Origin: Oscillospiraceae bacterium
Lineage (GTDB): Bacteria; Bacillota; Clostridia; Oscillospirales; Ruminococcaceae
Direction of reading: 5' to 3'
Length of the DNA stretch: 64,000 nt
Assembly (NCBI GenBank): GCA_017555565.1
Contig: JAFZGF010000061.1
Span: forward strand, 14,431 to 78,430
The translations under genes were made by a program, and so were the position numbers. The notes beneath the pieces were generated by a model. The model ran no database searches, was not told the origin of the DNA, and saw only the letters and a list, made by a program, of their open reading frames with translations. How positions within the stretch are numbered: the stretch's first letter is position 1; the number at the start of each line of letters is the position of its first letter. Below are positions 38,183 through 64,000 of this stretch, in pieces.

Positions 38183-38257
38183 ATGTCAATCAAAGTTACA
38201 TATAACACATCCATACACATTAGAATAAAATCACAATAAAAACAAGTGAGGAAACTA

Positions 38258-41623: not shown

Positions 41624-41628
41624 CTTAT

Positions 41629-41653
41629 GAGCCACTTTATCGTGGCTCTTTTT
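41629..41653 (+). terminator. Terminator after the kinase-STAND gene
   Basis: gagccac-tttatc-gtggctc followed by ttttt. Confidence 0.75.
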
Positions 41654-41763
41654 CGTTGTCAACGAAAGCTACATTTTCAATTACCCTACTATCTATAATA
41701 AACTCAAGTTCCATACTTGCTATAAACTTATGAACCAGACACAAATCAACGGAGAATTATTAT

Positions 41764-42081: not shown

Positions 42082-42181
42082 AACTATTTCTTTTAGTTGA
42101 TGTACCAAGTCTTAACTAGCAACTATTTTCAAATCCTATTTATCAATATACATACTGATGCTTATAACAAAACAAACCCAT

Positions 42182-42228
42182 TTTAATACCGACAGAAATG
42201 GAACCCCGGCCGAAATTGCGGTCGGGGG
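42182..42228. repeat. Left copy of a ~47-bp direct repeat bracketing the 1206-aa gene
   Basis: tttaataccgacaga-aatggaa-ccccggccgaaattgcggtcgggg. The matching copy is at 46254-46300. The 3' part is a terminator-type hairpin. Confidence 0.6.
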
Positions 42229-42254
42229 TTAAATAAGCGAATTAGTAAGGTTAC

Positions 42255-45875: not shown

Positions 45876-46253
45876 AATACACCCCTTAAATGTAATTCAA
45901 AATAATATGGTTTACTACTCATTATGTCCATTGATGCTATTTATAGCTCATATGCATTGTTCTCTGTCAAAGCCTGTTTGCGACGGTTATACATACTCTT
46001 TCAATGCAAGTTGGAAAATTAGTAAAACAACACTCAAAATAAATAATGGTGGTGCCCAGCTGTCGTATTCCCGTTCTTTTTTCAGTTTCTCAACTTCTTC
46101 GGTCGAAAGGTGTTTCCTGCTGGATGAACGGCGATTTCTTACATCATTAAGAATACCATGCACCAAGTCCAAACTAACAAAAACTTTTCAAATTTTATTT
46201 ATCAGCACCCATATACATACGGGTGCTCATAACAACACAAGTAAAAAACTAAA

Positions 46254-46300
46254 TTTAATACCGACAGAGGATGGAAAAGACCGCAAATTTGCGGTCTTTT
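46254..46300. repeat. Right copy of the ~47-bp direct repeat
   Basis: tttaataccgacaga-ggatggaa-aagaccgcaaatttgcggtcttt. The first 15 nt are identical to 42182-42196, and the hairpin is homologous. Confidence 0.6.
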
Positions 46301-46451
46301 TATTATAATTGTTGTAAAATTTCTTTCAGTTCAGGCCATTCACTAGAATATTTTTCTTGTCAAATTGTTCTAATATTATGAGTTTGTTGAAATAATGATA
46401 TTGCTAATATATAATATAAGTTATAATAACAAAATAAAATGGAGGCAGAGT

Positions 46452-48536: not shown

Positions 48537-48550
48537 AATTTTGTTTATTG

Positions 48551-48588
48551 AAAATAGTCTGTCGAAATTTCGACAGACTATTTTTTTA
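48551..48588 (+). terminator. Terminator after the GmrSD gene
   Basis: Perfect 14-bp stem atagtctgtcgaaa / tttcgacagactat followed by a T-run of at least 6. Confidence 0.8.
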
Positions 48589-48835
48589 TGTTATGAATTA
48601 TATTTTTATGAAAACCTATATCTTTTTGATTATAGTAATGTTAAAAATTATGTAACATATAATCTGTTTTGATACTTTTCGTTAGTTATTTATCGCTTTA
48701 AAGCTATTATTTGATTCAGACAAGAATTACTCCCAGCAAGTGGACAATTTTTTACATAGAAAACTAGTTCCGAATGATTAAAATAGCGGGATAATGTAAA
48801 AAAATACATTATCCCAACATTTTGATTGGGTGTAT

Positions 48836-48869
48836 CTATATATCGAACCGAATATGGTTCGATATATAG
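48836..48869. promoter_or_regulatory. Candidate C-box operator: perfect 14-bp inverted repeat upstream of the controller gene
   Basis: ctatatatcgaacc-gaatat-ggttcgatatatag. It ends 11 nt upstream of an extended -10 TGATATAAT (48880-48888), i.e. over the -35 position of the C/R promoter. Confidence 0.5.
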
Positions 48870-48918
48870 TAATTTTAAATGATATAATCCAAATAAATAA
48901 ACCATTTTAGATCCAGAG

Positions 48919-49173
48919 GTGAGAACAGTGCAAAAAATAAAAGGTTCAAAAGGATTAGGAGAGCACTTGAAAATGCTTCGATTGGAAGCAGGACCAGGTG
49001 TTACTGAACTTACTAGGTATATGCAATTATTGGGTTGTGACATTACCCGTGAGTGTTGGGTGAAAATTGAATCAGGTAAGCACAATATATCACCTGAACA
49101 ACTCTGGGCATTCAAAGAAGCCTTGCATATATCTTATGACAAAATTTTTGAATTTATGGAGGATAAAAAATGA
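48919..49173 (+). CDS. XRE-family HTH protein, probable R-M controller (C) protein
   Basis: 84 aa with GTG start. The HTH is LGEHLKMLRLEAGPGVTELTRYMQLLGCDITRECWVKIESGK. ATGA overlap with the downstream nuclease-like gene. Confidence 0.65.
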   Translation: MRTVQKIKGSKGLGEHLKMLRLEAGPGVTELTRYMQLLGCDITRECWVKIESGKHNISPEQLWAFKEALHISYDKIFEFMEDKK

Positions 49174-50432
49174 CAGAACATGTTGTAGCTATTTTGTATC
49201 ATAAAATTCAGGACTCGGACTTTACTAATATGTATGGTGTAAAAAAGCCTACAAGCGGAGGCGGTCAGACTTATATACAAGCAGCGGGATACAGTCGTGA
49301 AGAGCTTGATAAAATGTTTCGGGATGCAGATAATATATTTAACACTCTCGAGTTTTGGGATGAAAATCGTATTTACCCAAGGAAGAGATATACATTTCAG
49401 GCGTCCGTTGTTGGCAGTACATCTGCTGCCGATATTGAGCTTGCTCCAAGAACAGGAAGAAAGGATTATCGCATTTCAAGACAGAACTTAAAATATCGTC
49501 ATCCCGCATGGCAAACAAACAATGGGTTCCCTGAGCCCAATCGAAATAATAGCGGTGAGTATATTTATGAAAAGAATTATCCTAATATAATTGACAATCT
49601 TTTTGTTCTCATGATAAAAACCATTAGAGAGGATAACACTACACGTTTTTATGCCACTTATATAAATTCCGAGAATATTCCTTCTGATTGGCCTTCAGAT
49701 GTTGGGTTGGAAGATATTTTTTCTAAGAATAAACGTCAAGGTATTATCTTTTACGAGGAACAATATTTGCGCTTCGTCAATGACAAAAATACGCCATTTG
49801 CTATCGGTTCCGCTATTGATATTGAAATTGGAAATATTATTTTACCTACTAATTTTAACGAAACTTCTGATGACGCTGTTGAGTATGCCTCTAAGGAAAT
49901 CTCGATTACTGTGGATGTTTCCAACATAACAATCACGAAAGTAGAAGCTCCTCTGTTGAAGAAAAAGAAAACTCGTTCAGGAAAAAAATTGGGGACCAAA
50001 GATATCAACTACACAAGGCGTTATAAAAATCTCAAGAAGATCGGTGATATTGGTGAACTTTTGGCTATTGAAACGGAAAAAAGGAGGCTTGTCGCTGAAG
50101 GAAGGCCTGATTTGGCAGACCGAATAGAACATGTTGCATGTACAATTGGCGATGGATTGGGTTATGATATTTTATCATTTGAGCAAGTTGGGGCAGATTA
50201 TTGCGAAAAGTATATTGAGGTTAAATCAACAACAGGTAGCAAAAACAAGCCCTTTGATATTACTGCCAATGAAGTTGAGGTATCCGAAGAAAAAGGACAA
50301 CATTATTCTATTTATAGATTTTATGGATTAAGCAGTGCTGCTAAAGAGATGCGATACTATGAATGTCGAGGGCCTATTAAAGAAAACTTCACTTTGGAAG
50401 CTACGGCTTTTAAAGCTTATTACAAAGGATAA
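49170..50432 (+). CDS. Putative restriction endonuclease: unknown N-terminal domain + C-terminal DUF3883 (PD-(D/E)xK-like) domain
   Basis: The C-terminal IGDIGELLAIETEKRRL...GLGYDILSFEQVGADYCEKYIEVKSTTGSKNKPFDITANEVEVSEEKGQHYSIYRFY matches the DUF3883 pattern (GE...E...gyDi.s......iEVK.t......f.ls.nE...a...y.lyr). It is translationally coupled to the C protein and convergent with two MTase genes. Confidence 0.6.
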   Translation: MTEHVVAILYHKIQDSDFTNMYGVKKPTSGGGQTYIQAAGYSREELDKMFRDADNIFNTLEFWDENRIYPRKRYTFQASVVGSTSAADIELAPRTGRKDYRISRQNLKYRHPAWQTNNGFPEPNRNNSGEYIYEKNYPNIIDNLFVLMIKTIREDNTTRFYATYINSENIPSDWPSDVGLEDIFSKNKRQGIIFYEEQYLRFVNDKNTPFAIGSAIDIEIGNIILPTNFNETSDDAVEYASKEISITVDVSNITITKVEAPLLKKKKTRSGKKLGTKDINYTRRYKNLKKIGDIGELLAIETEKRRLVAEGRPDLADRIEHVACTIGDGLGYDILSFEQVGADYCEKYIEVKSTTGSKNKPFDITANEVEVSEEKGQHYSIYRFYGLSSAAKEMRYYECRGPIKENFTLEATAFKAYYKG

Positions 50433-50462
50433 AAAAGCGTGGGTTATCCCACGCTTTTTATT
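50431..50462. terminator. Bidirectional terminator shared by the convergent nuclease and methyltransferase genes
   Basis: aaaaaagcgtggg-ttat-cccacgcttttt. The last codons of the minus-strand MTase lie inside the hairpin. Confidence 0.6.
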
Positions 50463-51523
50463 TTTGTCAGAATGATAATGTATTCGTTCAATTTCTTAGA
50501 AAGGCTACTATTGTTGCTTCTAAATCTAGAGTATTCAATAGTTCTGTATGTGACATCACCAAACGAGGAAAACAGATTTATCAATTCATCTAACGATAAC
50601 AATCCATCTTCACTATAACTAATAATAAACTTGTCACAATCCATTTCGGTGATTACTTTAGAAAAAGACTCGCGAATCTTTGTTTTCGTGCAAAACTTGG
50701 AATGCTGATCCCACCAATCGCGCAACCCGCTTTTTCCTATTGTTTTAGGGAAATCTCCTCGTGCAATCGTTTCTAAGATATGATAATTAGCGGCATATTG
50801 ACGCTTTGTGTAAGGCGGATCAATATAGCATACATCTGCGGTTATGGTAGCGGCAATGTTCTCTGCAAAATCTTGAATGACCGTATTCTCTATGGTTCCT
50901 TCACTGATGAATTGGATGGGTTTTAATACAATTGCTTCTAATGATTTCGCATTAAACTTAGATAGAAAATAACCATATGTTCCAGAAATATTTGCCACAT
51001 CATTAACAGCCATAATCAAAGTATGCTTTAGAACAGATTCTTCTTCTGATGTGATTAAATCATTTTCAATCCATGCGTTGATTTGCTCCCTAATGGCGTC
51101 AATTTTTTTTGCGTTTTGAGATGTAAAGTATTTTCTGCTGGGAGAACCATTGCTAGGGGTCCCATCTGGAGAAAACTCGTTAAAGAAATAGCTTTCTTTT
51201 TCAGTCAATGAATTCAAATATTCTAATGTTGCTTCATATCCAGATAATTGGTTATTTACAATATTTAAGTGATTTTTGATCTTTTGAAAAGAAGGAGGTG
51301 CATCCAACAAGAGTTGTGTCACCAAGTGATGCTTAGAGTAAGTCATCATATCGGAAGCAATCACACGATATCCTTGTTTTCTCAAAGCAACAGACACGCT
51401 CCCTGTACCGGCCATTAAATCAACTACAGTTGCATTTCGAGGCGCTTCTTCTGAAAAAACATCCAACAAAACTGGCAGCAATTTTGTTTTGTTTCCTATA
51501 TACCTATACATATAGTTCTCCAA
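50444..51523 (-). CDS. D12-class (Dam-like) N6-adenine DNA methyltransferase
   Basis: N-terminal YRYIGNKTKLLPVLL (the Dam-family GxK motif), SAM motif VVDLMAGTGSVS, and catalytic motif CYIDPPYTKRQY (DPPY). Confidence 0.85.
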   Translation of the reverse strand: MENYMYRYIGNKTKLLPVLLDVFSEEAPRNATVVDLMAGTGSVSVALRKQGYRVIASDMMTYSKHHLVTQLLLDAPPSFQKIKNHLNIVNNQLSGYEATLEYLNSLTEKESYFFNEFSPDGTPSNGSPSRKYFTSQNAKKIDAIREQINAWIENDLITSEEESVLKHTLIMAVNDVANISGTYGYFLSKFNAKSLEAIVLKPIQFISEGTIENTVIQDFAENIAATITADVCYIDPPYTKRQYAANYHILETIARGDFPKTIGKSGLRDWWDQHSKFCTKTKIRESFSKVITEMDCDKFIISYSEDGLLSLDELINLFSSFGDVTYRTIEYSRFRSNNSSLSKKLNEYIIILTKIKSVG

Positions 51524-53183
51524 TTACTATTTTCATTTGATTAACCGCATTTAATTCTGGAAGCTTGTTAAGCTCATTAATGATAAGGTCTAATTCTTCT
51601 TGGCTTATATCATACAATCTCAAAACCAGTCTCTCTATTTCCAAATCTAGTTGGCGAGAATAGTTATTTTGGATTTTTTGTACTAATTGAGCGATTTTTT
51701 GACACACTTCTATGTTCGAATCATCTACCCTCCTAATAGGAAGTGAGAAAATGATATTCTTAGTTAAATACGGATGTGATTTCCATTCGTTTTCACCATA
51801 CTTTTTGAGGTAGTAATAGTACATAACTCGCGAATTTAAAACACCTAAATAATATTCAAGAGGTATAAGATCATCCTTTTGAATGTAGTTACACGAATAG
51901 ATTGTTTGGCTTATGTAGGTGCTTTCATAATCAATACAAGCATATATTCCTAACCCAGTTTTTCTTATCAGTACCTTGGGTGGATAATATAGCTCTGCGT
52001 TTTTATAATTGATACCATCTACATGGGGGAGTATATATCTAATACCATCAAAACTATAGCGATGTAAATTTTCCCCGACATACATAGGAAGGTATCCAGG
52101 TTTGTTGACCGTAGAAATAATCTTGAAAATATTCGATTGATTTACTGTGGTGGTTTTACCACAAAATTGGCATGTTTTATACCCTGTATCTAAGTGCTTT
52201 TTAGAGTAGCCTTGAGCTGATTCACAGTGTTGGCACTTGACTACGGCACCAGTTTTAGAGATTTCTACCCCTCTGCCAAAATGGAACAACGATTTCCAAT
52301 CAATATGATTGTTAGCGATTTTTTTCAATAAGAACTCCTCTTCCTCGCGAGCATCTATATCGAAAATAAAATTTTGATTATCTTCAAACCTTTTTTGCAA
52401 CACACAGTGCTTTTTTTGCGTATATGTCTCAAAGAGATCAAGAGCGCCTAACAAAAAATTCTTTCGATCAGTTGTGTCTAACCTATAGCATTTGGTTGAA
52501 CTATTTAATGTGGGTGCACTGTTTTTTAAGATAATAATACTCGTTGCTCGGTTGACATCTGGGAATATCTTTTCTCCTAGACGAGCAATAACTCTAATCT
52601 GGGTGTTTTTCACCAAGTATTCTCTTAGTTTCTTGTTTTCACTAGAAAAAAGAGAATCAGGGATAATAAATGCTAACATTCCACCATCTTTAGTTAGTTT
52701 TAAGCACAACTCAATGAATAATACATAGCTATCATATTGTCCTATGTAAAATTCATATCCGGCTTGAGAAAGATCGGTTTTAGAGAAAACTTTTTCAGAA
52801 CTCCAAGGAGGGTTAGCTATTACAAAAGAGATGTTTTGTAATCGGTGACGCCAATAATTTGTTGCAGTCATTTTCTCCGAAGGAATAATTGCATTCTTAC
52901 ATATAAATTGATATGTCGTATCGCTGAATATTCTTTTGTTTTGATCCACTACTCTTTTTTCAATATCCGTTCCTACGCAACAAATAGTTTGCATGTGATA
53001 ATTGTTAAACTCACGAGAGAATTCTTTTAACAGTATCCCTTCGCCACAAGCTGGATCCCAAACCGTTATAGGTTTATCGAAATCCAAAGTCTCTATATCT
53101 GTTTCACTTAACAACAACTTGGCCGTGAAATTTGCCAGCATTTGAGGAGTATACACAACACCATAACCATTTAATGGCATCAC
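51504..53183 (-). CDS. Gamma-class N6-adenine DNA methyltransferase (Eco57I/TaqI-like) with Cys4 zinc-ribbon insert
   Basis: Motif I VWDPACGEGILL. Motif IV FVIANPPWS (NPPW). CQHCES...CQFCGK zinc ribbon. TaqI_C-like target-recognition tail. It overlaps the next MTase by 20 nt. Confidence 0.85.
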   Translation of the reverse strand: MMPLNGYGVVYTPQMLANFTAKLLLSETDIETLDFDKPITVWDPACGEGILLKEFSREFNNYHMQTICCVGTDIEKRVVDQNKRIFSDTTYQFICKNAIIPSEKMTATNYWRHRLQNISFVIANPPWSSEKVFSKTDLSQAGYEFYIGQYDSYVLFIELCLKLTKDGGMLAFIIPDSLFSSENKKLREYLVKNTQIRVIARLGEKIFPDVNRATSIIILKNSAPTLNSSTKCYRLDTTDRKNFLLGALDLFETYTQKKHCVLQKRFEDNQNFIFDIDAREEEEFLLKKIANNHIDWKSLFHFGRGVEISKTGAVVKCQHCESAQGYSKKHLDTGYKTCQFCGKTTTVNQSNIFKIISTVNKPGYLPMYVGENLHRYSFDGIRYILPHVDGINYKNAELYYPPKVLIRKTGLGIYACIDYESTYISQTIYSCNYIQKDDLIPLEYYLGVLNSRVMYYYYLKKYGENEWKSHPYLTKNIIFSLPIRRVDDSNIEVCQKIAQLVQKIQNNYSRQLDLEIERLVLRLYDISQEELDLIINELNKLPELNAVNQMKIVIGELYV

Positions 53184-53410
53184 TCTTCATCACCTCCTGT
53201 AGCACAACACAAATCTATGCCCTGACTTTTCAATCGAAGATATCTTTCATAGGAAATAATGACGTTTTGAGGTTTATTTTGTTTATTAACGATAAGTATT
53301 TGGTCCTCATCTACCACTCTTTTGAACAGTCTGGCTGCTTGCCCTTTTTGAAATGATGTAATTCCTTCATATTCGGGGACAAGGATTTTAGATGTTTTAT
53401 GTTTTGCCAT
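53180..53410 (-). CDS. Phd/YefM-type antitoxin-fold protein leading the methyltransferase operon
   Basis: 76 aa. GITSFQKGQAARLFKRVVDEDQILIVNKQNKPQNVIISYERYLRL fits the Phd/YefM pattern (...v.itk.gkp.avl.s.e.Y..l). ggagg RBS. 4-nt overlap with the MTase gene. No toxin gene is adjacent. Confidence 0.55.
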   Translation of the reverse strand: MAKHKTSKILVPEYEGITSFQKGQAARLFKRVVDEDQILIVNKQNKPQNVIISYERYLRLKSQGIDLCCATGGDEE

Positions 53411-53671
53411 GCTGACCTCCGAGAAACTATATTAATGTGTATTGTATCATATATCATTATAATCGTCAATTTAATTATAGTTATTATTATAAAGATAAAA
53501 GTAATGATTTAAAAGAAAACAGTATAGATAATTCAACAAACTGATAATAAAAAGCTATTTGTAAATTTAAATAATAAGATAGGTACCTAATATGAAAATC
53601 AAATGCCCACATTAACTAAATTACATTAGTATAGCACTTAATTTATTTAATAAGCTTCAATGTTATGTGTT

Positions 53672-55168
53672 TTATAATATATTTATATTATATATGTCAT
53701 TTGTTTTTTTAAATTCAACCTCAGCCGGAAAAGGGTTCACACCTACATTTGCAAGTGCAACCATATTGAAAGACCATTCTTTCAGCTCATCTGGAAGCAA
53801 ATAACACACCGGTGTATCGTTCTCCATAATTGTTATACACGCTTTTTCGAAGTTACCAAAGAAACCAACATTTAATACAGCATATACCACTGCTTCATCT
53901 TTAATAGGTAACATTCCATGTTTACTATAATCAATATAGCATTTAGCGCCCTTTTGATTGTAATATGTGCCATCTTCTGGTATTTTCGTTGCATCAATTT
54001 TAATTTTATTTCTCATTCTTTCAAATTCGTGCTGTAGTGTTGAAACAGCCATACTATTCAACCGGATCTGATGTTTTTCGCCACTGATTTTTCTAAAATC
54101 ATTAATGTTTTCAAAAGAATCAAAGTAATGCAAAATACAGATAAGATAAATTAAATTATCAGAGTATTTACCACTATAGATTTTATCCCATACTTTATGC
54201 TGGTCAATAATTACAGTTTTCAACTTTTTATATAGCCGTAAATGTTCTGATCTAATAGTGAACCAATCCTTTTTAATAAACTGGAGTTTTTTCGTGTCTT
54301 CTGTGCTGCCATATTCAAGAGAATTCGATATTGATTTTAAAAGTGAAGAAGTTATTCCAGCAATAAAATCTGCAATTCTAAGGCCTACATATTCATCTGA
54401 TTTGCCTTCTTCACAATTTTCAAGTCCTTCGGATTTTGACGCAGCTAAAGTTTTGCCTGCACCTTCTTTATCGATAACCAAATGATAATCATTTACATCT
54501 AATTCACTCATGTACTTTTTGAAGCCTTGAAATGCGATAGAATAGTTCCAGTCGAGCACAAAATCGCTTGAATATTCATTTAAAATTATGAGTGCTTGTT
54601 CAATCGCTTGATTTTCCAATGGTCGCTTATCTTCTTTTTCGTTATCTTTATATACTTTTCCTAAAAAGATTTTAAGCTCATCAATAAAGGAATTATCGTT
54701 TCGATATACGGCATCATATACATTTTCAGGGCGGTATAATGCTACTAATTTTGATATAGAATATCGCAGATTATCAGCATCAATAATTAAAGAGTTTCTG
54801 TAATTACTTAACAACTGAAGAATTAAATATTCAAATTTATTAAACACACTTATGTATATAAAAAGCTTATTATCTATTACAATATCCAACAAATCATTTA
54901 CAAGGTTTAAATCATTCTTTTTGAAAGAAGCAAACCCAGATTTGTACTTCTTTTTTGTTATATTGGTGCTTTTAAGTTCATCTTTTACTGTAAAAAGCTT
55001 TTTATATATTTCGTCAAATTTCAAATACTGCTGCTCTATTTCCTCACGAATTTCATTAGGATATCCTACAATACAAGCGACAAAATTTTCAGAAAAATTT
55101 TCTGCTGTTATAGTGTTTTTGGTTAGTGTTCTGCTATGTTCCGATTCATCATAAAAGAAAGTGTGCAT
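53672..55168 (-). CDS. DUF3800-family protein (second copy in window)
   Basis: It starts MHTFFYDESEHS (hydrophobic-DES motif) and carries LRIADFIAGITSS (the Q/R-IAD-x-IAG motif). GGAGG RBS. It starts 24 nt after the upstream gene. Confidence 0.65.
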   Translation of the reverse strand: MHTFFYDESEHSRTLTKNTITAENFSENFVACIVGYPNEIREEIEQQYLKFDEIYKKLFTVKDELKSTNITKKKYKSGFASFKKNDLNLVNDLLDIVIDNKLFIYISVFNKFEYLILQLLSNYRNSLIIDADNLRYSISKLVALYRPENVYDAVYRNDNSFIDELKIFLGKVYKDNEKEDKRPLENQAIEQALIILNEYSSDFVLDWNYSIAFQGFKKYMSELDVNDYHLVIDKEGAGKTLAASKSEGLENCEEGKSDEYVGLRIADFIAGITSSLLKSISNSLEYGSTEDTKKLQFIKKDWFTIRSEHLRLYKKLKTVIIDQHKVWDKIYSGKYSDNLIYLICILHYFDSFENINDFRKISGEKHQIRLNSMAVSTLQHEFERMRNKIKIDATKIPEDGTYYNQKGAKCYIDYSKHGMLPIKDEAVVYAVLNVGFFGNFEKACITIMENDTPVCYLLPDELKEWSFNMVALANVGVNPFPAEVEFKKTNDIYNINIL

Positions 55169-55192
55169 TTTATACCTCCGATTCTATTATTT

Positions 55193-57229
55193 CTATGTCT
55201 CAGATTGATTCTTCTGTCTAATATATTCATTCAAATATTTAAACGGAAATGGCAACACAGTATACTGTCCATTACGTACAAACTCAACAGCAAGAAGTTT
55301 CATCAATTGCTCGAAGAATATTTCTCCACCGATAGATACTACTTCACGGATTAAACACGCATTATGCAAAGATAAATTCAAGCTTGTACTCTTAGTTCCT
55401 ACAAAGTAATATAGTTTATCATAATTATAAAAATATTTTATATCCATCAAAGAGCCAAAGTATTCTTCTTTTATTTCTTTCACTTTAGGTGTTGGGTGTA
55501 ATAATATACCTCGTGTCTGATAAAGGTAACTATTAAATTCTTTTACTACCTTTTTTCTAATGTTTATTATTTCAAGAATTTCACCAATTGTTATTTCTTC
55601 TATATTTATTTCATTCAAAACGAGATATAAATTGGACAATTCTGCTGGCATTTCTTTAGATTCTGATTGTTCCGCAAATTCCTTTAAAGCCTCAATAATA
55701 ATTTCTACATTCACAAAACCATCTTTATCAGATAACCTTAATGCTCTTGCTAAGGTATCAATTTTAGGTAGTGTTGTTTGTTCCGTTTTCATTATTACAT
55801 TTATATTAGACTTATCGTAATATACAAGACCTTCTATATTTCTATTTTTAAATTCAGAATTATACTTTTCATAGGTATCGTATATTTCGATCCATTCATC
55901 ATCTTCTGTGAACTCTTGAGAATCCCAAAAGTCAAATTTCAATAAACCATCTTTAGAAACTGACATTCTATAAAATTTATAAAACTTTTTATTCTTTTCA
56001 CCTGTGTATTTCCAATAAGTTTTCCCGCACACAAATTTTATAGCATTTCTTTCATTCCAGTTAACTAATGATAATTTTTCATCAAATATATCTCCTTTGA
56101 TAAGAAGTTCCTGAATAATTTTTTTGAGTGCGGCATCCTCATTATCATCACTTTTCAGCTTAAAATCTTCTATAGTCACATGCTGAGCAATGCTATATCT
56201 TTTTGAATTTTTGTATTTATCAGAAATATTGTTTTTTTCATAATATTCTTTGTTGTGAATAATACTGATAGCATACGCATCATCAAGATAACGGTTAACA
56301 ATGCATTCTATTCCATAAACAGCCATCATTTTATCTTTTATCAAATTGGTTAGAGCAATAGAGTCAGCATCTTTTTCTTCATCAATTATGCATACACCTT
56401 TTTCTTTTAGAGTCTTTCCATATTCTTTTTCTTCAAAAGAATCATCAGAAATATCAACGCTATTGTAAACAGAATAAGTTCCAAACCCTATTTTGATATA
56501 ATCAGATAAATAATACTTCACATCATCCATAAATTCAGCATATATACCTACTTTACAATTTTGAAATTTCTTGTAACTACTAAAGTCCAGAAAATCTATA
56601 GCATTCTTTTTATTTGGATTCATAGAACGCTTGACATATATCTCGTCGTCTGGCACATTGTCTGCTGTTAATTTTTTTCTTAATCTGCCTGAATTCTCAT
56701 CAAATAAATATTTAGCATCTTTATTTTTTCCTTTAATTTTACTCAATAAAGAAAAGGTCTCTATATTCAACTTCAAGTAATTATCTTTTGAAAGAGAAAC
56801 CAAGATTGCAAAAAAGGTGTTCTTTTTCATAAATTCTTCTCTAAAATAATAGAGTTTCCCAGAAATGTTATTGAACTTCATTTCCTTTGTAGTTGGTGAG
56901 CCAAGCGTATTAAATAATAATTGTGCTAACACATTATCATAAATACTTTTACTTTGGGTGATGTCAACTTTATTAATGATTGATTCTGGATCTTCCAGCT
57001 CTAATGCAGCTTTAAAACTAGTGTAGTTTACTGTGCCTTTATCAAACATTACATACCATTCATTTCCCCAATTATAAACGACTGATTTAGCTAAAAAATC
57101 CTGACTACTAATGTCTAAAATATTACTTTTAAAGTAATTGCCCTTCTCTTTAGAAACTCTGAATATATCAAAGTCTCTGTCAATATTTTCACGATTAAAA
57201 TCGTAATTAAGCTTATTACAATAAATCAT
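55193..57229 (-). CDS. 678-aa partner of the helicase-nuclease; DdmE-like (pAgo-like) by size and synteny only
   Basis: Its start overlaps the helicase stop (TAATG). No NTPase or nuclease motif was seen. Length and position match DdmE (~690 aa), which follows DdmD in Vibrio cholerae. The C-terminal ...QYTVLPFPFKYLNEYIRQ is reminiscent of the PIWI C-terminal P-x-P-x-x-Y-A/L segment (weak). Confidence 0.4.
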   Translation of the reverse strand: MIYCNKLNYDFNRENIDRDFDIFRVSKEKGNYFKSNILDISSQDFLAKSVVYNWGNEWYVMFDKGTVNYTSFKAALELEDPESIINKVDITQSKSIYDNVLAQLLFNTLGSPTTKEMKFNNISGKLYYFREEFMKKNTFFAILVSLSKDNYLKLNIETFSLLSKIKGKNKDAKYLFDENSGRLRKKLTADNVPDDEIYVKRSMNPNKKNAIDFLDFSSYKKFQNCKVGIYAEFMDDVKYYLSDYIKIGFGTYSVYNSVDISDDSFEEKEYGKTLKEKGVCIIDEEKDADSIALTNLIKDKMMAVYGIECIVNRYLDDAYAISIIHNKEYYEKNNISDKYKNSKRYSIAQHVTIEDFKLKSDDNEDAALKKIIQELLIKGDIFDEKLSLVNWNERNAIKFVCGKTYWKYTGEKNKKFYKFYRMSVSKDGLLKFDFWDSQEFTEDDEWIEIYDTYEKYNSEFKNRNIEGLVYYDKSNINVIMKTEQTTLPKIDTLARALRLSDKDGFVNVEIIIEALKEFAEQSESKEMPAELSNLYLVLNEINIEEITIGEILEIINIRKKVVKEFNSYLYQTRGILLHPTPKVKEIKEEYFGSLMDIKYFYNYDKLYYFVGTKSTSLNLSLHNACLIREVVSIGGEIFFEQLMKLLAVEFVRNGQYTVLPFPFKYLNEYIRQKNQSET

Positions 57230-60200
57230 TAATTTAACTCTCCTTTCAAAAATCGCATAATGTTTTTATCAACATTTCCATCTTCATCAATCAGGCGAGG
57301 AATTTCGACAATCTCACCATCGTTATATGTTCCAACACCAAATTCTTTATCAGATACAATATTAACTATATATACCTTTTTCGCTCCTATTGATTGCATT
57401 TTACTTTTTATTTCTGCGAGTTTTGTGCTTCTATCTTCTGGATATCCATATTTCCAATGTTTAAAATCAACATATATGCCGTCGCTAATCTCATAGTCAA
57501 AAAACTCAAACTTAGACGGATCTGTAATTGGTTTTAGGTCTATTCCAAATTCTTTTATAAATATATAATACCCAGCGGCTTCTCCAAGCGCTCCTTTATA
57601 TATGTTTTGGAATAATACCGGTGACATTATCATATCCCCGTTGCCAAATTTTGTGGCCCATCCATTTTCATCAAAATATGTTTTCATTCCCGGATATTTC
57701 AAAATTTGCTGTAACCTTGATGTTTCCTCGTTTACACTAGAAATAATTTTATTTTTAGTCTTAGTACTTTCACCAAAAATCGCCATGTCATTGTCGTAAT
57801 CGATAACAACATCCGAAAAGTCTCCTTTCTGCGCAAACAGATAGTTAGAATCATTATTTTTATTGGTTATATACAGAGAATTAACAATGTCTTTAAAATC
57901 CTCATTTTTGATATCTGCTGTTGGATATGATAATACACAGTTTCTCAATTGATTCCATAATTCCATACTACGGCTTGTCCAGTTTCTTGATAACATTCGC
58001 ATTATATAGTTTTTGCCTCTGGATGATATTTTTTCCGCTTTATTTATTAACGTATCATCGCAATACGCATTTGATTTACTAAAATTATTTTTCAACTCAA
58101 CAACTGCTCTCATTTCTGGACTTAAAATAATATTTTCAATCTCAGATACATCCATTTTGGACAAAAGTTCTTCAATTAAAAAAATATAAATTGTTGAATT
58201 TTTGTTGAATGTTCTGCAAATTCGTCCTATTGCCTGAATTACATCTTTTGTAACGCTTTTGGCCACACTTTTCGATTTTCTAAGCTTTTCTATTGCTGTA
58301 TTATCTCGTTCATTACTACCGGAATAAGCTTTAAAGCCTTGCTTTATCAACCTATTAAGGCAATCAAAGTTTATTTCATTATTTTGATATAGATATTCTA
58401 CGTCAAAGAAGAAATCCAACATTTCTCTTTTCCCAAAATTCTCTTTATCATACACGTTCACAACAATGTGAGTTATATCTCCAAGGAAAATAGCATCTAT
58501 ATCTTTTGACAACATTCGATTATCATTTTCTATATCAGATTTAAAGACATTTACCGTTTTCACTTCAGCAGGGATTCTATATTGCATATTTTGACCGGCA
58601 CCAATAGTCTTATATGTTGATAAAATAAATACTTTTTTTCCTTGCTCAAGTTTTTCAATAATTAATTCTTTTTCTTCTTCAAAGTTATCACTTGTTAAAC
58701 ATGCTATTTCATAATCAGCTACGTCAAATAATTTTGCAAAATAATTTGCTACATCTTCTATGAGATGTAAATCAAACGAATTTTTATTGTATCTTGGTAA
58801 AACAGAGTTCAAGCATAGAAATGATTTTATATCCTGATATTCCATAAAACTTTTTATCGCTGAAAAAATATTACAGTATCTCTGCCATATATATTTATTT
58901 CCTTCAGATATTTTCATTAACTTCATTTCGTACTTTTTACAAATATCTAAATTGTCTCCAAAAATTTCAAGTGCTCGTTTTTCTAAACTGATTTTGCCTT
59001 TATTGCAGTTAATAATTTCTGATTTTATATTAACAATACCCTTTCCATACGCGTTCCAACGCTCTTCAAGCTCTTTTCGTAATTTTTTTGCTGTTGCATC
59101 ATCCACTGTTATAAAATTTTCTTTCAGCATATCAGATAAATATTCAATATCAAAATTGCCTGTTACAGTCTTTAATGTAGCCGTTGCAGAAATACCGATC
59201 ACTTTCGCTTTAGTAGACAGCTCAAGCATTATTTTTTCTGGAGTATTAGCAACCTGTACGTAATTAAAAATCGTTTTACTCAAATGCTCATCTGCATCAA
59301 CAAATTCAAAATACTTAAATCCATTATTGTAGAATGACATATCTGGTATAATCGAGTCAGCTTCGGCTTTATTCAAATTCAAAAGTCCATTTTGCATCAG
59401 ATTAATTTGATTGTTTGATAAAGAGAACTCTTTATATATTGATGATATTGCATTTTCTAATGTAAATCTGTTTTCGTGGTCACCTCTACGTACATTTTCT
59501 TCTTCGACATATTTTTCAGCCCAATTCATTACCATTATTCTAAATTTATTAAGAAAAGAATTTATATCTCGCACAAGTCCATACACTATAATGTCTTTTT
59601 CTGATTTGTTTGAGTTATATTCTTCTTTGTTTTCAAAATATATTTCTACATGGTTTTCTTCTTTATTTGGTGTAACTCGAATATAACTTTTATCATTTCT
59701 TAACATCGTATGATACGAATTATCATTGAACAAGAAACTTTGTCTTCTATCAACTCCGTCTCCATTTGTCTTATAACTATATTGCAAACAATAGTTATTA
59801 TATATTACTTGTGCCTCCTCGCTCAGAAGCTCTAATGTTATTGGTGAATTATTTTCTAGTGTATATTTATTGTATGGACGTCTTAATGCTTGCGGCAACT
59901 CATGAGTACTAATTGTTTTAAAAATCTGCTCAAACAATTTTATATAGTCATCTTGTGTATTCATTGCATTTTCGATGATGTGGTCTTCCATAGTCGCTTT
60001 AACGGCATCAAACTCATCAATAAACACAATTGAATCTTTAACGATATCACTCTTTATAAATTCATACGACGGCTCTACTAACGTGATGTTTCTTGACAGA
60101 AATTTTTTCATGGTAAGTAAATAGATTTTATAATCGTCCATAAACACTGTAGGGTATAATTCTCCTATCCACTCGTATTGTTTAAGATTTTTTATGCAAT

Positions 60201-60708
60201 GCTTTCGCTTACTTTTACTTAATGGCAGTTCTCGTTTTATAACCGACATTATTTCTCTTCTGAATGCTGGTTCATGTTTTTCTCGTACGTCTTTCTGCAA
60301 TTCTTTTATAAACTCATTAAGCGAAGCATCTCGTCTATTTTCCAATCTTTTTATTTTAGTTATGATTTCACACAGTTCATAATATGCTGATGATTTATAT
60401 TTAGTAGGAATATCTACATCCAATAATCTTTCATAAACCAATTCATAGGCAGATTTTATAACTAACACTTCTTTTTCAAATAAGTTTTCATGTCCATTAG
60501 ATTTATATATTTTCTTTAATTCTTCTATAGGTAAATTTTTTATAAGAGGGGTAACAAAAAACACTTTTTTACTATTTCTTTTTACTCTTTCATATTCATA
60601 AATACTTTGTGCTGCAGTATAAGTTTTGCCATATCCCACCGGCATATCAATCAATAACAAACCATTTTTTGTTTTATTTTTCATAAAATTATTAATTGTT
60701 TTTTGCAT
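57229..60708 (-). CDS. SF2 helicase fused to a C-terminal PD-(D/E)xK nuclease (DdmD-like architecture)
   Basis: Motif I LLIDMPVGYGKTYTA. Motif II VFIDEFDAV. Motif III VIGISATATL. Motif VI VIQAIGRICR. C-terminal nuclease motifs are GALGEAAG ... FFDYEI ... IYVDFKHW (E...D...D-x-K). 1159 aa. Confidence 0.75.
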   Translation of the reverse strand: MQKTINNFMKNKTKNGLLLIDMPVGYGKTYTAAQSIYEYERVKRNSKKVFFVTPLIKNLPIEELKKIYKSNGHENLFEKEVLVIKSAYELVYERLLDVDIPTKYKSSAYYELCEIITKIKRLENRRDASLNEFIKELQKDVREKHEPAFRREIMSVIKRELPLSKSKRKHCIKNLKQYEWIGELYPTVFMDDYKIYLLTMKKFLSRNITLVEPSYEFIKSDIVKDSIVFIDEFDAVKATMEDHIIENAMNTQDDYIKLFEQIFKTISTHELPQALRRPYNKYTLENNSPITLELLSEEAQVIYNNYCLQYSYKTNGDGVDRRQSFLFNDNSYHTMLRNDKSYIRVTPNKEENHVEIYFENKEEYNSNKSEKDIIVYGLVRDINSFLNKFRIMVMNWAEKYVEEENVRRGDHENRFTLENAISSIYKEFSLSNNQINLMQNGLLNLNKAEADSIIPDMSFYNNGFKYFEFVDADEHLSKTIFNYVQVANTPEKIMLELSTKAKVIGISATATLKTVTGNFDIEYLSDMLKENFITVDDATAKKLRKELEERWNAYGKGIVNIKSEIINCNKGKISLEKRALEIFGDNLDICKKYEMKLMKISEGNKYIWQRYCNIFSAIKSFMEYQDIKSFLCLNSVLPRYNKNSFDLHLIEDVANYFAKLFDVADYEIACLTSDNFEEEKELIIEKLEQGKKVFILSTYKTIGAGQNMQYRIPAEVKTVNVFKSDIENDNRMLSKDIDAIFLGDITHIVVNVYDKENFGKREMLDFFFDVEYLYQNNEINFDCLNRLIKQGFKAYSGSNERDNTAIEKLRKSKSVAKSVTKDVIQAIGRICRTFNKNSTIYIFLIEELLSKMDVSEIENIILSPEMRAVVELKNNFSKSNAYCDDTLINKAEKISSRGKNYIMRMLSRNWTSRSMELWNQLRNCVLSYPTADIKNEDFKDIVNSLYITNKNNDSNYLFAQKGDFSDVVIDYDNDMAIFGESTKTKNKIISSVNEETSRLQQILKYPGMKTYFDENGWATKFGNGDMIMSPVLFQNIYKGALGEAAGYYIFIKEFGIDLKPITDPSKFEFFDYEISDGIYVDFKHWKYGYPEDRSTKLAEIKSKMQSIGAKKVYIVNIVSDKEFGVGTYNDGEIVEIPRLIDEDGNVDKNIMRFLKGELN

Positions 60709-60793
60709 AATTAAAATCCTTTCTGTTCATATTTATTAAATTAAAGTTCTTTATTTTTATGATATGCCTTTAATTGCTTAAACTCAATATGCA

Positions 60794-60831
60794 GCATTTT
60801 AATTATATAAAATTTTGTATAATTAAAATGC
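60794..60831. promoter_or_regulatory. 38-bp near-perfect palindrome just upstream of the helicase promoter (candidate WYL-regulator operator)
   Basis: gcattttaattata-taaaattttg-tataattaaaatgc has 14-bp perfect arms, and the spacer is itself nearly self-complementary. On the minus strand it lies 6 nt upstream of a TTGAGT-17-TATCAT promoter (-35 at 60782-60787), which precedes the aaagga RBS and the ATG at 60708. Confidence 0.45.
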
Positions 60832-60863
60832 TCAATTATCTAAAAAATTAGATAATTGAGCAT
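60828..60863 (-). terminator. Terminator of the WYL regulator gene
   Basis: 15-bp stem atgctcaattatcta / tagataattgagcat with an A/T loop, 5 nt after the WYL gene stop. Confidence 0.55.
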
Positions 60864-60867
60864 CAAA

Positions 60868-61860
60868 TCATATTTTTACTTTTTCAATTAATTCTCGCAT
60901 ATTTTTTCTAACGGATTCTGGAGATAGTATTTCAACATCTCCCATACCAATTATCCATCCTAAAAATATATTAGACGGCACCGCTATAAAATTCACAATT
61001 AAATATTCTTCGTTTTCTTTTTCTATTTCTATATCTATCCCGAACTGATCGATAAACGCACCCGCAAGATGTTTTTTTATTCTAACAGTTATTTCTTTTT
61101 CATCTCCAGAAAACATTTCTTTGCGTCTTGAAACATATGTGCTAGCATCAAAGTTTTTGAACTCTTTTCGCCCATCTCGACGCATAGCATCAATAATACG
61201 AATATTTTTTAATTTATCTACCCTGTAACATCTCTCTTCGACTTTTCCATTAGAATTCTTATATCCATATAAATAATATCTATCATTGGCCAAAATAAAT
61301 GCCCACGGACTAAATACTCTTAAATCATCTCCATTCTTTACAAGACGTTTATTTTCATTCCATTGAAGATATTCAAAACTAATTTGTTTATCTTGTCGTA
61401 TAGCATCTTGGATTGTATCAATATTTCTCAAAATACTTTCATTATTTGCCTTTGCGACGTTTACTCCAAAAACTGTGCGATCTAATTCATCTTGTTCATA
61501 TATACTTATAATACTTTTCAAATTTTCTATAAGTTCTTTGGATTTCTGCGGTGTAATAAAGTTAGTTGCATTTATCAAATCCACAAGAATTTTCATTTCT
61601 GTTTTTCTGATAATCCTATCGTTATCGCTGATAGAATATCCCGCATAACGCCCTCTAGAATAAATCACTTCTATACCTAATTCCCGGTTTATCTCATCAA
61701 TATAACTATGTATAGTTTGCTGACTACATTTATGTCCCGACTCTTCCATTTTTCGCAAAATTTCAGACATAGACAAGCTATGTTCCTCATCAGTTTGTTC
61801 CATTAATATTTTCAAAAGAGCGAGGATGTTGCTTTTCGTAATATTATTTGATGAAGTCAT
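60868..61860 (-). CDS. HTH + WYL domain transcriptional regulator (BrxR/CapW-like)
   Basis: N-terminal wHTH (ILALLKILMEQTDEEHSLSMSEILRKMEESGHKCSQQTIHSYIDEI). The central WYL-domain segment is RVFSPWAFILANDRYYLYGY, followed by a C-terminal WCX-like region. GGAGG RBS. Confidence 0.8.
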   Translation of the reverse strand: MTSSNNITKSNILALLKILMEQTDEEHSLSMSEILRKMEESGHKCSQQTIHSYIDEINRELGIEVIYSRGRYAGYSISDNDRIIRKTEMKILVDLINATNFITPQKSKELIENLKSIISIYEQDELDRTVFGVNVAKANNESILRNIDTIQDAIRQDKQISFEYLQWNENKRLVKNGDDLRVFSPWAFILANDRYYLYGYKNSNGKVEERCYRVDKLKNIRIIDAMRRDGRKEFKNFDASTYVSRRKEMFSGDEKEITVRIKKHLAGAFIDQFGIDIEIEKENEEYLIVNFIAVPSNIFLGWIIGMGDVEILSPESVRKNMRELIEKVKI

Positions 61861-61961
61861 ATACTAACCTCCAATATAAAGTTTTATAATGCCATATAAA
61901 TACTTTTATATATAATATATCAATATTATCCCATATAATTAGGCCTTTTACAACATAATTT

Positions 61962-61995
61962 AAAACAAGCGAGGAAATATATCCTCGCTTGTTTT
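61962..61995. terminator. Bidirectional terminator after the AAA/DUF4143 gene
   Basis: aaaacaagcgagga-aatata-tcctcgcttgtttt. Confidence 0.7.
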
Positions 61996-62009
61996 GGCTA
62001 AATTGTTAA

Positions 62010-63803
62010 TCACAAACTATTCAAATACTCTTCCACATTCAGATACTTTATACCATCAACTTCGCAGGTTTTGCCTCGGTAAATTACGTTCTTTGAAACA
62101 ATAGTTCCGTATCGGAATTCTGTTTGATTGCATTTTTCTGCATCTTCCAAGTGTCTATATTGTTGCGGTGAAATCTGGGTGCTGTGCTTGATTTCATATA
62201 TTTCGCATTCAAGTTTTTCCGGATCACAGACTACCATATCAAACTCTCCGACAGCAAATTTAAGTTGGAATACTTCTTTATTCGGATTGCTCAATTTTGT
62301 TTCCAGCAAAACAATTTCTTCCATCATTCTGCCCTTTACTTCGCTGAGAATTCTGTATGTAATTCTCTTGCGTTCCACAGCAGAAAATTTATTGAATTTT
62401 TCATCCATCATAAGACTGCGCACAAGAGTTTCTGCTTGAGTGTATCGCATACCTGGCTGGCAGATTACCGTGATTTTGTCTTTGGTATTAACGTCAGGTA
62501 AATAATTCAAATCAACTTCTTGTATTAAATCCAACAGTTGCAGATATTCTTTTATCTGCTGTGCATGGGCTGTTTCAATATCTACGGTATGTTTCTCTTT
62601 GTTGATTATATCAAGCGCACCCATAATGGATTGCGTTACGGCAGATATATCAATATTCTTGATTAAATCCACAGGATTTTCACGGTCTTTCAAAAGATTT
62701 CTCGCAGATACTGCTAAATCATTAGATTTAAAAGTTCTCTCCAACACTTCTTTTGTAAATCTGTGGTTGATATCTTCTATAACCCTGTTGATTGCGCTTG
62801 TCAGTTCATTTTTTTCATACAAATTATACAGATGTCTGAAATGGCTGCCATCATTATAGTATTTCAGAGAGTGTTGGATATTTCTAGCGATGGCACTGTC
62901 GATATATTCATCAGTGTTTGCCCGAGTAGCGAATGAGGATGTTTCGTTATAATTTATACCACTCATACTCATTGTGCCACCATACTGAATATATTCATCA
63001 ATGCCTTTAATACCGAGAACTTTTTCAAATTCACGGTATGGGATAAAGGTTGTATGAAGCATAATACAGCGGTCATACAACTGGTCGGATTTTGTAAAAG
63101 TAAACCCCAATGAATCTGTACCGGACAAGACAATTTTCATACCGCTGCTTGCATAAATATCTGAGAAAAGCGCTGCACCTTCGATAAAGTCTTCCATAAG
63201 AGTGACTTCATCAATAAATACATATTTATATCCAGTTTTCTGCAAATATTTCAGGTCGGAATTGATATCAGACAAAGTGTCGGAACTTTTCACTTGAATG
63301 AAAGCAGATTTTGCCAATTCCTCAGAGGACATATTCAGAATAATCTGCCTGATTAAAGTGGTTTTACCTGTTCTTCTCAGTCCATACAGTATAAAAACCC
63401 TATCCTGTATATTGCCAAAAACATACTCATAAAGATTTTTATAGCATTCTCTTTTTTTATAATTTTTTACGCCTTCAGAAAATGCAACAAGCTGTTCATC
63501 TATTCGCACATAAGTTCTAAATTTATAGGAGCTTTTGGAAGGTTTTTTCTTTTTTGAAGGTGCCAATTCTTTTTTCAATGCTTTAAGTTCCTTTTCAAGG
63601 AGCTTTCTCTTGGCGATATCTTTCTTGAGAATCTCTGCTTTTTCAAAGTCAACATACTCTTCCTTGCGGTCGCCATCTTTATTGATGCGGAGATAGTAGT
63701 ACTTTTTATCATTGACTTTCTTCACAGTCAGATTTCCAACAGGAAGACAGGCGATATCGCGTTCAAGTTCTTCTATTCTGTTTATAATATCTCTGTTATC
63801 CAT
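62010..63803 (-). CDS. AAA_14 ATPase + DUF4143 (PD-(D/E)xK-like) protein with coiled-coil N-terminal extension
   Basis: Walker A ILYGLRRTGKTTLIRQ. Walker B VFIDEVT. The C-terminal FAVGEFDMVVCDPEKLECEIYEIKHS gives a D...E-x-K motif. The start is moved to ATG 63803 (aggaga RBS 8 nt upstream), because the listed start at 63860 lies inside the promoter/operator palindrome. Confidence 0.7.
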   Translation of the reverse strand: MDNRDIINRIEELERDIACLPVGNLTVKKVNDKKYYYLRINKDGDRKEEYVDFEKAEILKKDIAKRKLLEKELKALKKELAPSKKKKPSKSSYKFRTYVRIDEQLVAFSEGVKNYKKRECYKNLYEYVFGNIQDRVFILYGLRRTGKTTLIRQIILNMSSEELAKSAFIQVKSSDTLSDINSDLKYLQKTGYKYVFIDEVTLMEDFIEGAALFSDIYASSGMKIVLSGTDSLGFTFTKSDQLYDRCIMLHTTFIPYREFEKVLGIKGIDEYIQYGGTMSMSGINYNETSSFATRANTDEYIDSAIARNIQHSLKYYNDGSHFRHLYNLYEKNELTSAINRVIEDINHRFTKEVLERTFKSNDLAVSARNLLKDRENPVDLIKNIDISAVTQSIMGALDIINKEKHTVDIETAHAQQIKEYLQLLDLIQEVDLNYLPDVNTKDKITVICQPGMRYTQAETLVRSLMMDEKFNKFSAVERKRITYRILSEVKGRMMEEIVLLETKLSNPNKEVFQLKFAVGEFDMVVCDPEKLECEIYEIKHSTQISPQQYRHLEDAEKCNQTEFRYGTIVSKNVIYRGKTCEVDGIKYLNVEEYLNSL

Positions 63804-63822
63804 ATAACCATCTCCTGAATTT

Positions 63823-63880
63823 ATTATACCCATTATACCCTTTCTGTACTGTTTTTTCAAGAGGGTATAATGGGTATAAT
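63823..63880. promoter_or_regulatory. Promoter flanked by a 19-bp perfect inverted repeat, each arm a tandem GGGTATAA doublet
   Basis: attatacccattataccct (63823-63841) and agggtataatgggtataat (63862-63880) are exact reverse complements. On the minus strand the region reads TTGAAA-17 nt-TATAAT-gggTATAAT-...aggaga...ATG, so one arm supplies the -10 box and the other sits just upstream of the -35. Confidence 0.55.
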
Positions 63881-63944
63881 TCTTGGTGTGGAAGGTTAAT
63901 TTTTATAGTCTGTTAGGTTTAATACTGAAACCTTTAAAGAGTAC

Positions 63945-63976
63945 AAAAAGCTCTCCTGTTATCAGGAGAGTTTTTT
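63945..63976. terminator. Bidirectional terminator at the right edge
   Basis: aaaaag-ctctcctg-ttat-caggagag-tttttt. Confidence 0.7.
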
Positions 63977-64000
63977 GTATGTCATAAGTTAAGTTGGTAT

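Follow-up and report, generated by a model that had tools for sequence, protein, structure and literature searches.

A divergent DdmDE locus with a WYL regulator in an Oscillospiraceae bacterium, followed by a DUF3800 gene found mostly in other defence contexts

Four consecutive minus-strand genes of an Oscillospiraceae bacterium (GCA_017555565.1) are analyzed here. They lie in a 64,000-nucleotide (nt) stretch of contig JAFZGF010000061.1 (positions 14,431-78,430), referred to below as the window, at the end of a defence island that occupies ~38-64 kb of it. They encode a 330-amino-acid (aa) WYL-domain protein, a 1159-aa helicase-nuclease, a 678-aa protein, and a 498-aa protein of the DUF3800 family. 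A first-pass annotation of this DNA took the second and third genes to be DdmDE-like, and the WYL and DUF3800 genes to be extra components that would extend the known system. DdmDE of Vibrio cholerae was reportedly described by Jaskolska et al. in 2022. The positions annotated for the four open reading frames (ORFs) hold exactly:

60868-61860, minus strand: WYL regulator gene (330 aa)
57229-60708, minus strand: ddmD (1159 aa)
55193-57229, minus strand: ddmE (678 aa)
53672-55168, minus strand: DUF3800-family gene (498 aa)

The two junctions at the 3' side were also as annotated. The stop codon of ddmD and the start codon of ddmE overlap in the sequence TAATG, with a GGAGA ribosome-binding site (RBS) in front, and the ddmE stop codon is separated from the ATG of the DUF3800 gene by 24 nt that include a GGAGG RBS. 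A terminator-like structure was looked for at the latter junction, and none was seen. The G+C content of the four-gene region is ~28-31%, and its GC skew is strongly negative, which fits minus-strand coding. Among 80 DdmE loci taken from representative genomes, DdmD and DdmE are adjacent in at least 60, across phyla; here too, ddmD stands directly upstream of ddmE, and the two form one operon.

The 1159-aa protein matches the solved DdmD of Lactobacillus casei (9ix4_A) over residues 9-1146 with an E value of 3.9e-78 in a search of Protein Data Bank (PDB) sequences, and V. cholerae DdmD with 4e-32. The DdmD model of PADLOC-DB v2 is also matched (3.8e-32), covering residues 254-1139 only, and Pfam places a ResIII domain at the N terminus. 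The helicase motifs comprise GYGKT at 25-29 (K28), DEFD at 231-234 (D231/E232), and QAIGR at 825-829 (Q825/R829). In the alignments that we used to score residue invariance (52 DdmDs, 27 DdmEs, and 24 DUF3800 homologs), K28, D231/E232, and Q825/R829 are invariant. The same is true of the C-terminal nuclease motif E...E..D...DxK, formed by E1043, E1068, D1071, D1081, and K1083. V. cholerae DdmD requires E1059, E1082, D1085, D1100, and K1102 (Loeff et al., 10.1101/2024.05.10.593530), and the HMMER alignment pairs these five residues with ours one to one. The helicase motifs and C-terminal nuclease named in the first-pass annotation are thus present, and the comparison with DdmD gives matches to both solved proteins. 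As judged from these motifs and matches, the 1159-aa protein is DdmD, with a predicted superfamily 2 (XPD/DinG-like) helicase and a predicted C-terminal PD-(D/E)xK nuclease.

A hypothetical protein of an Oscillospiraceae metagenome-assembled genome has the same sequence as the 678-aa protein (100% identity), for which neither Pfam nor NCBIfam gives a match; the NCBIfam scan of five proteins gave nothing useful for any of them. Against PDB sequences, it matches L. casei DdmE (9iw3_A) over its full length with an E value of 2.9e-19, and V. cholerae DdmE with 2.3e-14. An AlphaFold2 (AF2) model built on 27 homologs reached a mean predicted local distance difference test score (pLDDT) of 86.5 and a predicted template-modelling score (pTM) of 0.84. 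Searched against the PDB with Foldseek, this model retrieved DdmE structures as its six best matches (template-modelling [TM] scores of 0.59-0.76, E values of 2e-36 to 4e-24), among them L. casei DdmE (TM 0.76, E 2e-36) and full-length V. cholerae DdmE chains (TM 0.68-0.73). These were followed by Argonautes, namely, hAgo2/Ago3, RsAgo (Rhodobacter), TtAgo (Thermus), and PfAgo (Pyrococcus), with E values of 1e-7 to 3e-4. The Argonaute-like fold that the first-pass annotation could not recognize by eye is therefore present in the model.

The residues of the guide-binding pocket point the same way. V. cholerae DdmE holds the 5' end of its guide with Y363 and K405 and contacts Mg2+ through Q376, E401, K674, and E678 (Loeff et al., 10.1101/2024.05.10.593530). 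In the HMMER alignment, Y363/Q376/E401/K405/K674/E678 correspond to Y339/Q349/E374/K378/K664/E668 of the 678-aa protein. Five of the six are invariant in the homologs, and position 339 is Y or H. The predicted MID pocket for the guide 5'-phosphate and Mg2+ is thus conserved. In the PIWI region (400-678), the sole invariant acidic residue is E668, the Mg2+/5'-phosphate ligand, and there is therefore, by this indirect test, no conserved DEDX tetrad, as would be expected of a member of the inactive long-C clade of prokaryotic Argonautes (pAgos). Judged by its whole fold, the 678-aa protein is DdmE, a predicted inactive long-C pAgo, presumably with an N-L1-C-APAZ-L2-MID-PIWI layout. Sequence, catalytic residues, and predicted fold together strengthen the original description of these two genes from "DdmDE-like" to DdmD and DdmE.

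The closest known system is that of L. casei (PDB 9IX4, 9IW3, and 9IXM; 10.1101/2024.10.09.617351), to which both proteins are most similar in sequence and fold. The two systems agree in their two-gene core, in gene order, in protein sizes, in the logic of a helicase-nuclease combined with an inactive pAgo, and in having a host among the Bacillota. The relationship is nevertheless distant, and the host is a clostridium (Oscillospiraceae), not a member of the Lactobacillaceae. With solved structures already available for L. casei DdmDE, the occurrence of DdmDE in a Firmicute does not extend the known system, as had been suggested. The L. casei paper names two families, Vibrionaceae and Lactobacillaceae (10.1101/2024.10.09.617351), and we found no discussion of a wider spread, archaea included, in the literature searched. 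Intact adjacent DdmD-DdmE pairs were observed in methanogenic archaea (L018-L020 and L025), cyanobacteria (L027, L047, and L071), Bacteroidota (L022-L024 and L038-L046), and Fibrobacter (L055 and L069). Compared with V. cholerae, the nuclease residues of DdmD (E/E/D/D/K) and the MID pocket of DdmE are conserved one to one here, and the order WYL gene, ddmD, ddmE is the same.

The 330-aa protein matches the Pfam families WYL (1.7e-10) and WCX (1.6e-5), both above the cut-offs, as well as the PADLOC WYL model (1.7e-27). In a sample of 50 DdmDE loci examined for upstream neighbours, the gene directly upstream of DdmD belongs more often to WYL than to any other Pfam family (12 loci). By an iterated hidden Markov model (HMM), a WYL gene is adjacent in ~14 of the 50: upstream on the same strand in 7, upstream and divergent in 4, and directly after DdmE in 3. 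WYL homologs are found directly upstream of DdmD in L005, L007, L009-L011, L014, L016, L081, and L082; the WYL-DdmD-DdmE order is kept in the relatives L081 (87% DdmE identity) and L082 (53%). Elsewhere, a gene of the WYL type (~300 aa) comes right after DdmE, in Saccharicrinis and Carboxylicivirga of the Bacteroidota (L022-L024), or is upstream but divergent, in L048, L055, L069, and L073, so that the position of the regulator is fluid.

V. cholerae likewise carries an HTH-WYL gene, VC1772, upstream of ddmDE (reviewed in PMC12409362). Mutation of the predicted single-stranded DNA (ssDNA) pocket of this protein, WYL^DE, abolishes ddmDE induction in restricted phage infection (10.1101/2025.11.13.688357). 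The pairing of a WYL gene with ddmDE is thus already known, and VC1772 was shown to control ddmDE; the WYL gene is not the extra component that it was taken for in the first-pass annotation. The 330-aa protein also resembles WYL repressors of the BrxR/CapW type in its helix-turn-helix (HTH), WYL, and WCX layout, in its location beside a defence operon, and possibly in palindromic operators, of which there are candidates at the promoter. It is probably the repressor of the ddmDE operon. Unlike in V. cholerae, a hairpin and a separate promoter-like site lie between the WYL gene and ddmD. The candidate regulatory features are as follows:

61925-61953, minus strand: promoter-like site of the WYL gene, TTGTAA-17-GATAAT with TG (consensus scan; candidate)
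60827-60864, minus strand: hairpin directly after the WYL stop codon, 16-17-bp arms and 4-nt loop (probable weak intrinsic terminator)
60793-60832, no strand assigned: two 20-nt half-sites (TTTTGYATAATTAAAATSCT) that form a 40-bp palindrome immediately next to the -35 element of the ddmD promoter-like site (candidate WYL operator)
60759-60787, minus strand: promoter-like site of ddmD, TTGAGT-17-TATCAT (consensus scan; candidate)
60701-60720, no strand assigned: third copy of the 20-nt half-site, overlapping the RBS and start codon of ddmD (repeat scan)

The promoter-like site of the WYL gene lies downstream of the terminator hairpin of an upstream AAA_14 gene (61995-61962). Promoter-like sites found by the consensus scan are not enriched over shuffled sequences, and this site is therefore a candidate only. 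The hairpin after the WYL gene may well act as a terminator because its pairing is kept in L081 through two compensatory changes and because a hairpin of unrelated sequence, followed by a T-tail, takes its place in L082. The arms of the 40-bp palindrome (inverted repeat I2), located between this hairpin and the ddmD promoter-like site, are 95% complementary. The intergenic region of L081 is 96% alike overall, which is too similar for the conservation of the operators to be judged.

The 498-aa protein belongs to the Pfam family DUF3800 (PF12686), with 24.9 bits against a gathering score of 21, and it matches no family in PADLOC-DB v2. Its homologs share an invariant YDESEHSR sequence (Y6-D7-E8-S9-E10), D233/E235, and R264..D267, in agreement with the DE and (Q)xxD motifs by which DUF3800 has been described (PMC7736814). 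The AF2 model (pLDDT 89.5) begins with an N-terminal domain that resembles RNase H2, continues with a helical region, and ends in a beta domain formed by the last ~100 residues. Its best PDB matches are RNase H2A/HII/H3 proteins, with probabilities of 0.84-0.97, TM scores on the target of 0.35-0.50, and weak E values of ~0.1-0.2; among viral proteins, a phage DUF3800 protein comes first, with a probability of 1.00. We predict from this model that the protein is an RNase H2-like nuclease. Many relatives (P0118-P0253) are ~390-420 aa long, end at profile position ~385, and lack the C-terminal beta domain, which is therefore a modular add-on. An OB, SSB, or HIN identity was considered for this domain, and the resemblances were too weak for any such claim. 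The family is large: the metagenome collection contains 401 or more relatives, and there are ~800 representative clusters, 212 of them at E<=1e-30.

DUF3800 proteins are known from the literature as partners in type VII retrons (PMC7736814) and, fused to tetratricopeptide repeats (TPR), beside Cas12a2/a3 (PMC10910872, PMC13594972). These proteins share with ours the Pfam domain, the N-terminal DE motif, the predicted RNase H2-like fold, and defence genes as neighbours. The 498-aa protein, in contrast, has no TPR, reverse transcriptase fusion, or RNA motif, and possesses helical and C-terminal beta domains of its own. Some DUF3800 genes carry structured RNAs, the DUF3800-I to -XI motifs (Weinberg 2017). 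An Rfam scan of 52500-64000 at E<=1 detected no DUF3800 RNA motif and returned two matches only, far below the gathering scores; at other loci, the DUF3800 gene is too tightly packed to leave room for such an RNA. We found no paper in the literature that tests the stand-alone ~500-aa architecture.

We then asked how often DUF3800 and DdmDE occur together, from both sides. The gene sets of the 80 DdmE loci contain no member of the 498-aa family (0/80, by phmmer and by the family HMM), and DUF3800 is not among the Pfam families listed for 45 genes directly downstream of DdmE. Relatives with 52-53% DdmE identity (L082 and L084) have other genes downstream of DdmE. A phmmer search of the 80 loci with the DUF3800, Phd-like, methyltransferase, and NOV_C proteins of the window revealed no conserved partner, with only two methyltransferase matches. 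Conversely, among 88 loci that carry the family of the 498-aa protein, the DdmE HMM matches one (L092) and the DdmD HMM none. The DUF3800 protein of L092 is 95% identical to that of the window and follows ddmE at the same junction; this locus is therefore the same element and not independent evidence.

The surroundings of the DUF3800 gene in the 88 loci are diverse, with 93 clusters of immediate neighbours, 73 of which are singletons. The most recurrent neighbours are HsdS upstream (13) and HsdR downstream (11), which places the gene inside type I restriction-modification (R-M) operons, where it shares ~23-26 nt with the 3' end of hsdS and is separated from hsdR downstream by 33 nt. Such embedded genes occur in L107, L110, L118, L122, and ~10 more of L093-L172, and recall PrrC in the EcoprrI operon. 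Other recurrent neighbours are a UvrD-type GajB-like helicase upstream (6), an OLD/TOPRIM GajA-like ATPase downstream (5), HEPN genes (3), and Toprim/HTH genes. In human-gut contigs (L085-L088 and L093-L098), a 53-56% identical DUF3800 lies 24-40 nt after a Gabija-like OLD-TOPRIM ATPase and UvrD helicase, or before a GajA-like gene; the collection lists the protein cluster of these Gabija-linked members in 222 of its index blocks. In some loci, the DUF3800 gene is on its own, next to MobL or recombinase genes. Taken in either direction, the four-gene arrangement is not co-conserved, and the proposal that DUF3800 is a fourth component finds no support in the 80 DdmE loci and, in the 88 DUF3800 loci, a single near-identical copy. 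The DUF3800 gene thus behaves like an autonomous cassette that moves from one defence island to another, and on these counts it is not a component of DdmDE. In this genome, the 24-nt gap, the RBS, and the lack of a terminator make co-transcription likely, and the gene is probably co-transcribed with ddmDE.

Our favoured reading, which we consider likely, is that the locus encodes a DdmDE system under WYL control that is directed against plasmids and possibly phages, and that an unrelated DUF3800 cassette of one gene was inserted behind it, at the 3' end of the operon. Several observations weigh against this reading. The 678-aa protein is ~18-19% identical to solved DdmE, that of L. casei included, in structural alignments, and the DdmE model of PADLOC-DB v2 fails to match it even at E<=10, so that PADLOC recognizes only the DdmD half of the pair. 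The miss can be attributed to divergence from the sequences behind the model, since the PDB sequence and fold matches are clear. In the 330-aa protein, HTH_11 scores 17.2 bits, below the Pfam cut-off of 25, and the protein matches no solved WYL regulator (BrxR, CapW, or DriD) among PDB sequences at E<=0.01. The WYL gene had been credited with a terminator of its own; the hairpin exists, and its T-tail is weak, so that its role as a terminator is plausible rather than proven. The half-site pattern has 3 matches in the window against 0.18 expected, all at 60701-60832, but it was derived post hoc from these very copies, so that the statistics are optimistic and the sites are candidate operators only. 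The 24-nt gap, the strong RBS, the absence of a terminator, and the identical junction in L092 also fit functional coupling of DUF3800 to DdmDE. Finally, plasmid elimination, guide loading, and repression are assigned to this locus by homology.

Several other interpretations of the DUF3800 gene were weighed. One, which we regard as doubtful, is that the ~500-aa DUF3800 protein, with its RNase H2-like core and a C-terminal beta domain that may be OB-like, represents an undescribed defence module that rides in operons of DNA-targeting helicases and nucleases (type I R-M, Gabija, and DdmDE) and serves there as a second-layer or guard nuclease. PrrC, which sits inside the EcoprrI hsd operon, offers a comparison. 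If this were true, the nuclease might fire when the host system is inhibited, or it might act on RNA:DNA or ssDNA intermediates.

It is less likely still that the locus is a true four-gene system in which this lineage of DdmDE uses the RNase H-like nuclease as an accessory, with possible roles in making or trimming DNA guides, in processing R-loops or D-loops, or as a back-up effector when DdmDE is inhibited. The spacing, the GGAGG RBS, the likely co-transcription, and the junction shared with L092 would suit such an accessory, as would the habit of the family of residing within DNA-targeting helicase/nuclease operons (between hsdS and hsdR, or after GajB) and the association of TPR-DUF3800 with Cas12a2/a3, at times together with UvrD (PMC10910872, PMC13594972). 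However, the counts of 0/80 and 1/88, the latter a 95% identical near-copy, speak against it, as do the relatives with 52-53% DdmE identity that lack DUF3800, the members of the family that occur alone, and the solved V. cholerae and L. casei systems, which consist of two proteins.

An insertion without any defence role, in which the DUF3800 gene would be a selfish mobile element of the RNase H fold (transposase-like or homing) that enters operons, seems highly improbable. The many unrelated contexts (93 neighbour clusters), the presence of DDE transposases among RNase H-like folds, and the recombinase, MobL, and Toprim genes near some members are compatible with it. Yet the best structural matches are RNase H2/HII and not transposases, the overlap of ~23-26 nt with hsdS and the 33 nt to hsdR leave no space for terminal repeats (no search aimed at terminal inverted repeats was made), and the contexts are overwhelmingly those of defence genes. 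The last alternative, raised in the first-pass annotation, is that the pair belongs to a helicase-nuclease system not yet described and is like DdmDE only in size and order. It can draw on the missing PADLOC DdmE match, the blank Pfam result for the 678-aa protein, and its low identity to solved DdmE, but it is virtually excluded by the significant full-length matches to solved DdmD and DdmE, the DdmE fold (TM 0.76, E 2e-36), and the conservation of all functional residues.

For a WYL-regulated DdmDE with an added cassette, the following mode of action can be proposed. By homology with V. cholerae and L. casei, DdmE would load short 5'-phosphorylated DNA guides in its MID pocket. The guide-loaded protein would then bind complementary invader DNA and recruit an auto-inhibited DdmD dimer, which would dissociate, allowing a monomer to load on the displaced strand. 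DdmD would translocate 5'-3' with ATP and degrade the DNA through its PD-(D/E)xK domain. As suggested by V. cholerae WYL^DE and the local palindromes, the WYL protein most likely represses the operon via the 20-nt half-sites at or near the promoter and RBS of ddmD, with repression being lifted when the WYL domain binds an infection-derived cue, e.g., ssDNA. The predicted DUF3800 nuclease would be a self-contained defence or accessory nuclease that borrows the ddmDE promoter and is co-induced with DdmDE.

Further genes of the defence island surround the four described above. Directly upstream of the WYL gene, 62010-63860 (minus strand) encodes a 616-aa AAA_14 ATPase (PADLOC candidate PDC-S01, 5e-11), which ends in the strong 14-bp-stem hairpin at 61995-61962 and has a terminator-like site upstream at 63970-63951. 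This gene also precedes WYL-DdmDE in L081, and a homolog stands directly upstream of DdmD, with no WYL gene, in L012. We considered the ATPase as a fifth component and rejected it: the strong hairpin parts it from the WYL gene, and it recurs only in L012 and L081. Beyond the DUF3800 gene, 53180-53410 (minus strand) contains a 76-aa ORF with a weak Phd/YefM-like match and its own promoter-like site and RBS, which may be a controller or antitoxin-like regulator. Its stop codon overlaps the GTG with which the gene for a 559-aa Eco57I/N6_Mtase/TaqI_C methyltransferase starts, and a D12-class adenine methyltransferase gene follows; the two methyltransferase genes lie at 50444-53183 (minus strand). 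No cognate restriction endonuclease was recognized for these two adenine methyltransferases, which, like the AAA_14 ATPase, belong to the island.

The run of defence genes continues at 38246-50432 with a 1125-aa protein that has a PD-T4-6-like kinase N terminus; a 1206-aa protein with no Pfam domain, the C terminus of which matches PADLOC Upx (5.6e-27); a 713-aa DUF262/Orf5/HEC-06/SspE-like protein (3.5e-105); and a 420-aa NOV_C/PDC-S36 protein. Elsewhere in the window are housekeeping genes (lacZ-like, galT, YfhO, and MBOAT) and another small cluster, at 4994-11793 (minus strand), of three consecutive genes. These encode a 1112-aa TIR protein that may contain a beta-propeller, a 520-aa ion-channel protein (Ion_trans_2) with an RyR-like C terminus, and a 621-aa protein that neither Pfam nor PADLOC recognizes; the cluster could serve in TIR-based defence, with a membrane effector. 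A 570-aa Schlafen AlbA_2 and HATPase_c_4 protein is encoded at 31091-32803 (minus strand), and the same architecture flanks the DUF3800/Gabija-like island in L085-L088.

DdmDE, its WYL regulator, and its presence in Firmicutes were already known, and the uncharacterized part of the locus is the DUF3800 cassette. A highly divergent DdmDE with a WYL switch is present in gut Clostridia, and the lack of a match to the PADLOC-DB v2 DdmE model suggests that DdmDE may be under-counted in anaerobes and archaea. The four-gene system, tempting but in our reading false, is struck from the candidates. What takes its place is a compact and widespread family of predicted DUF3800 nucleases (~800 representative clusters) that embeds repeatedly in other defence operons.

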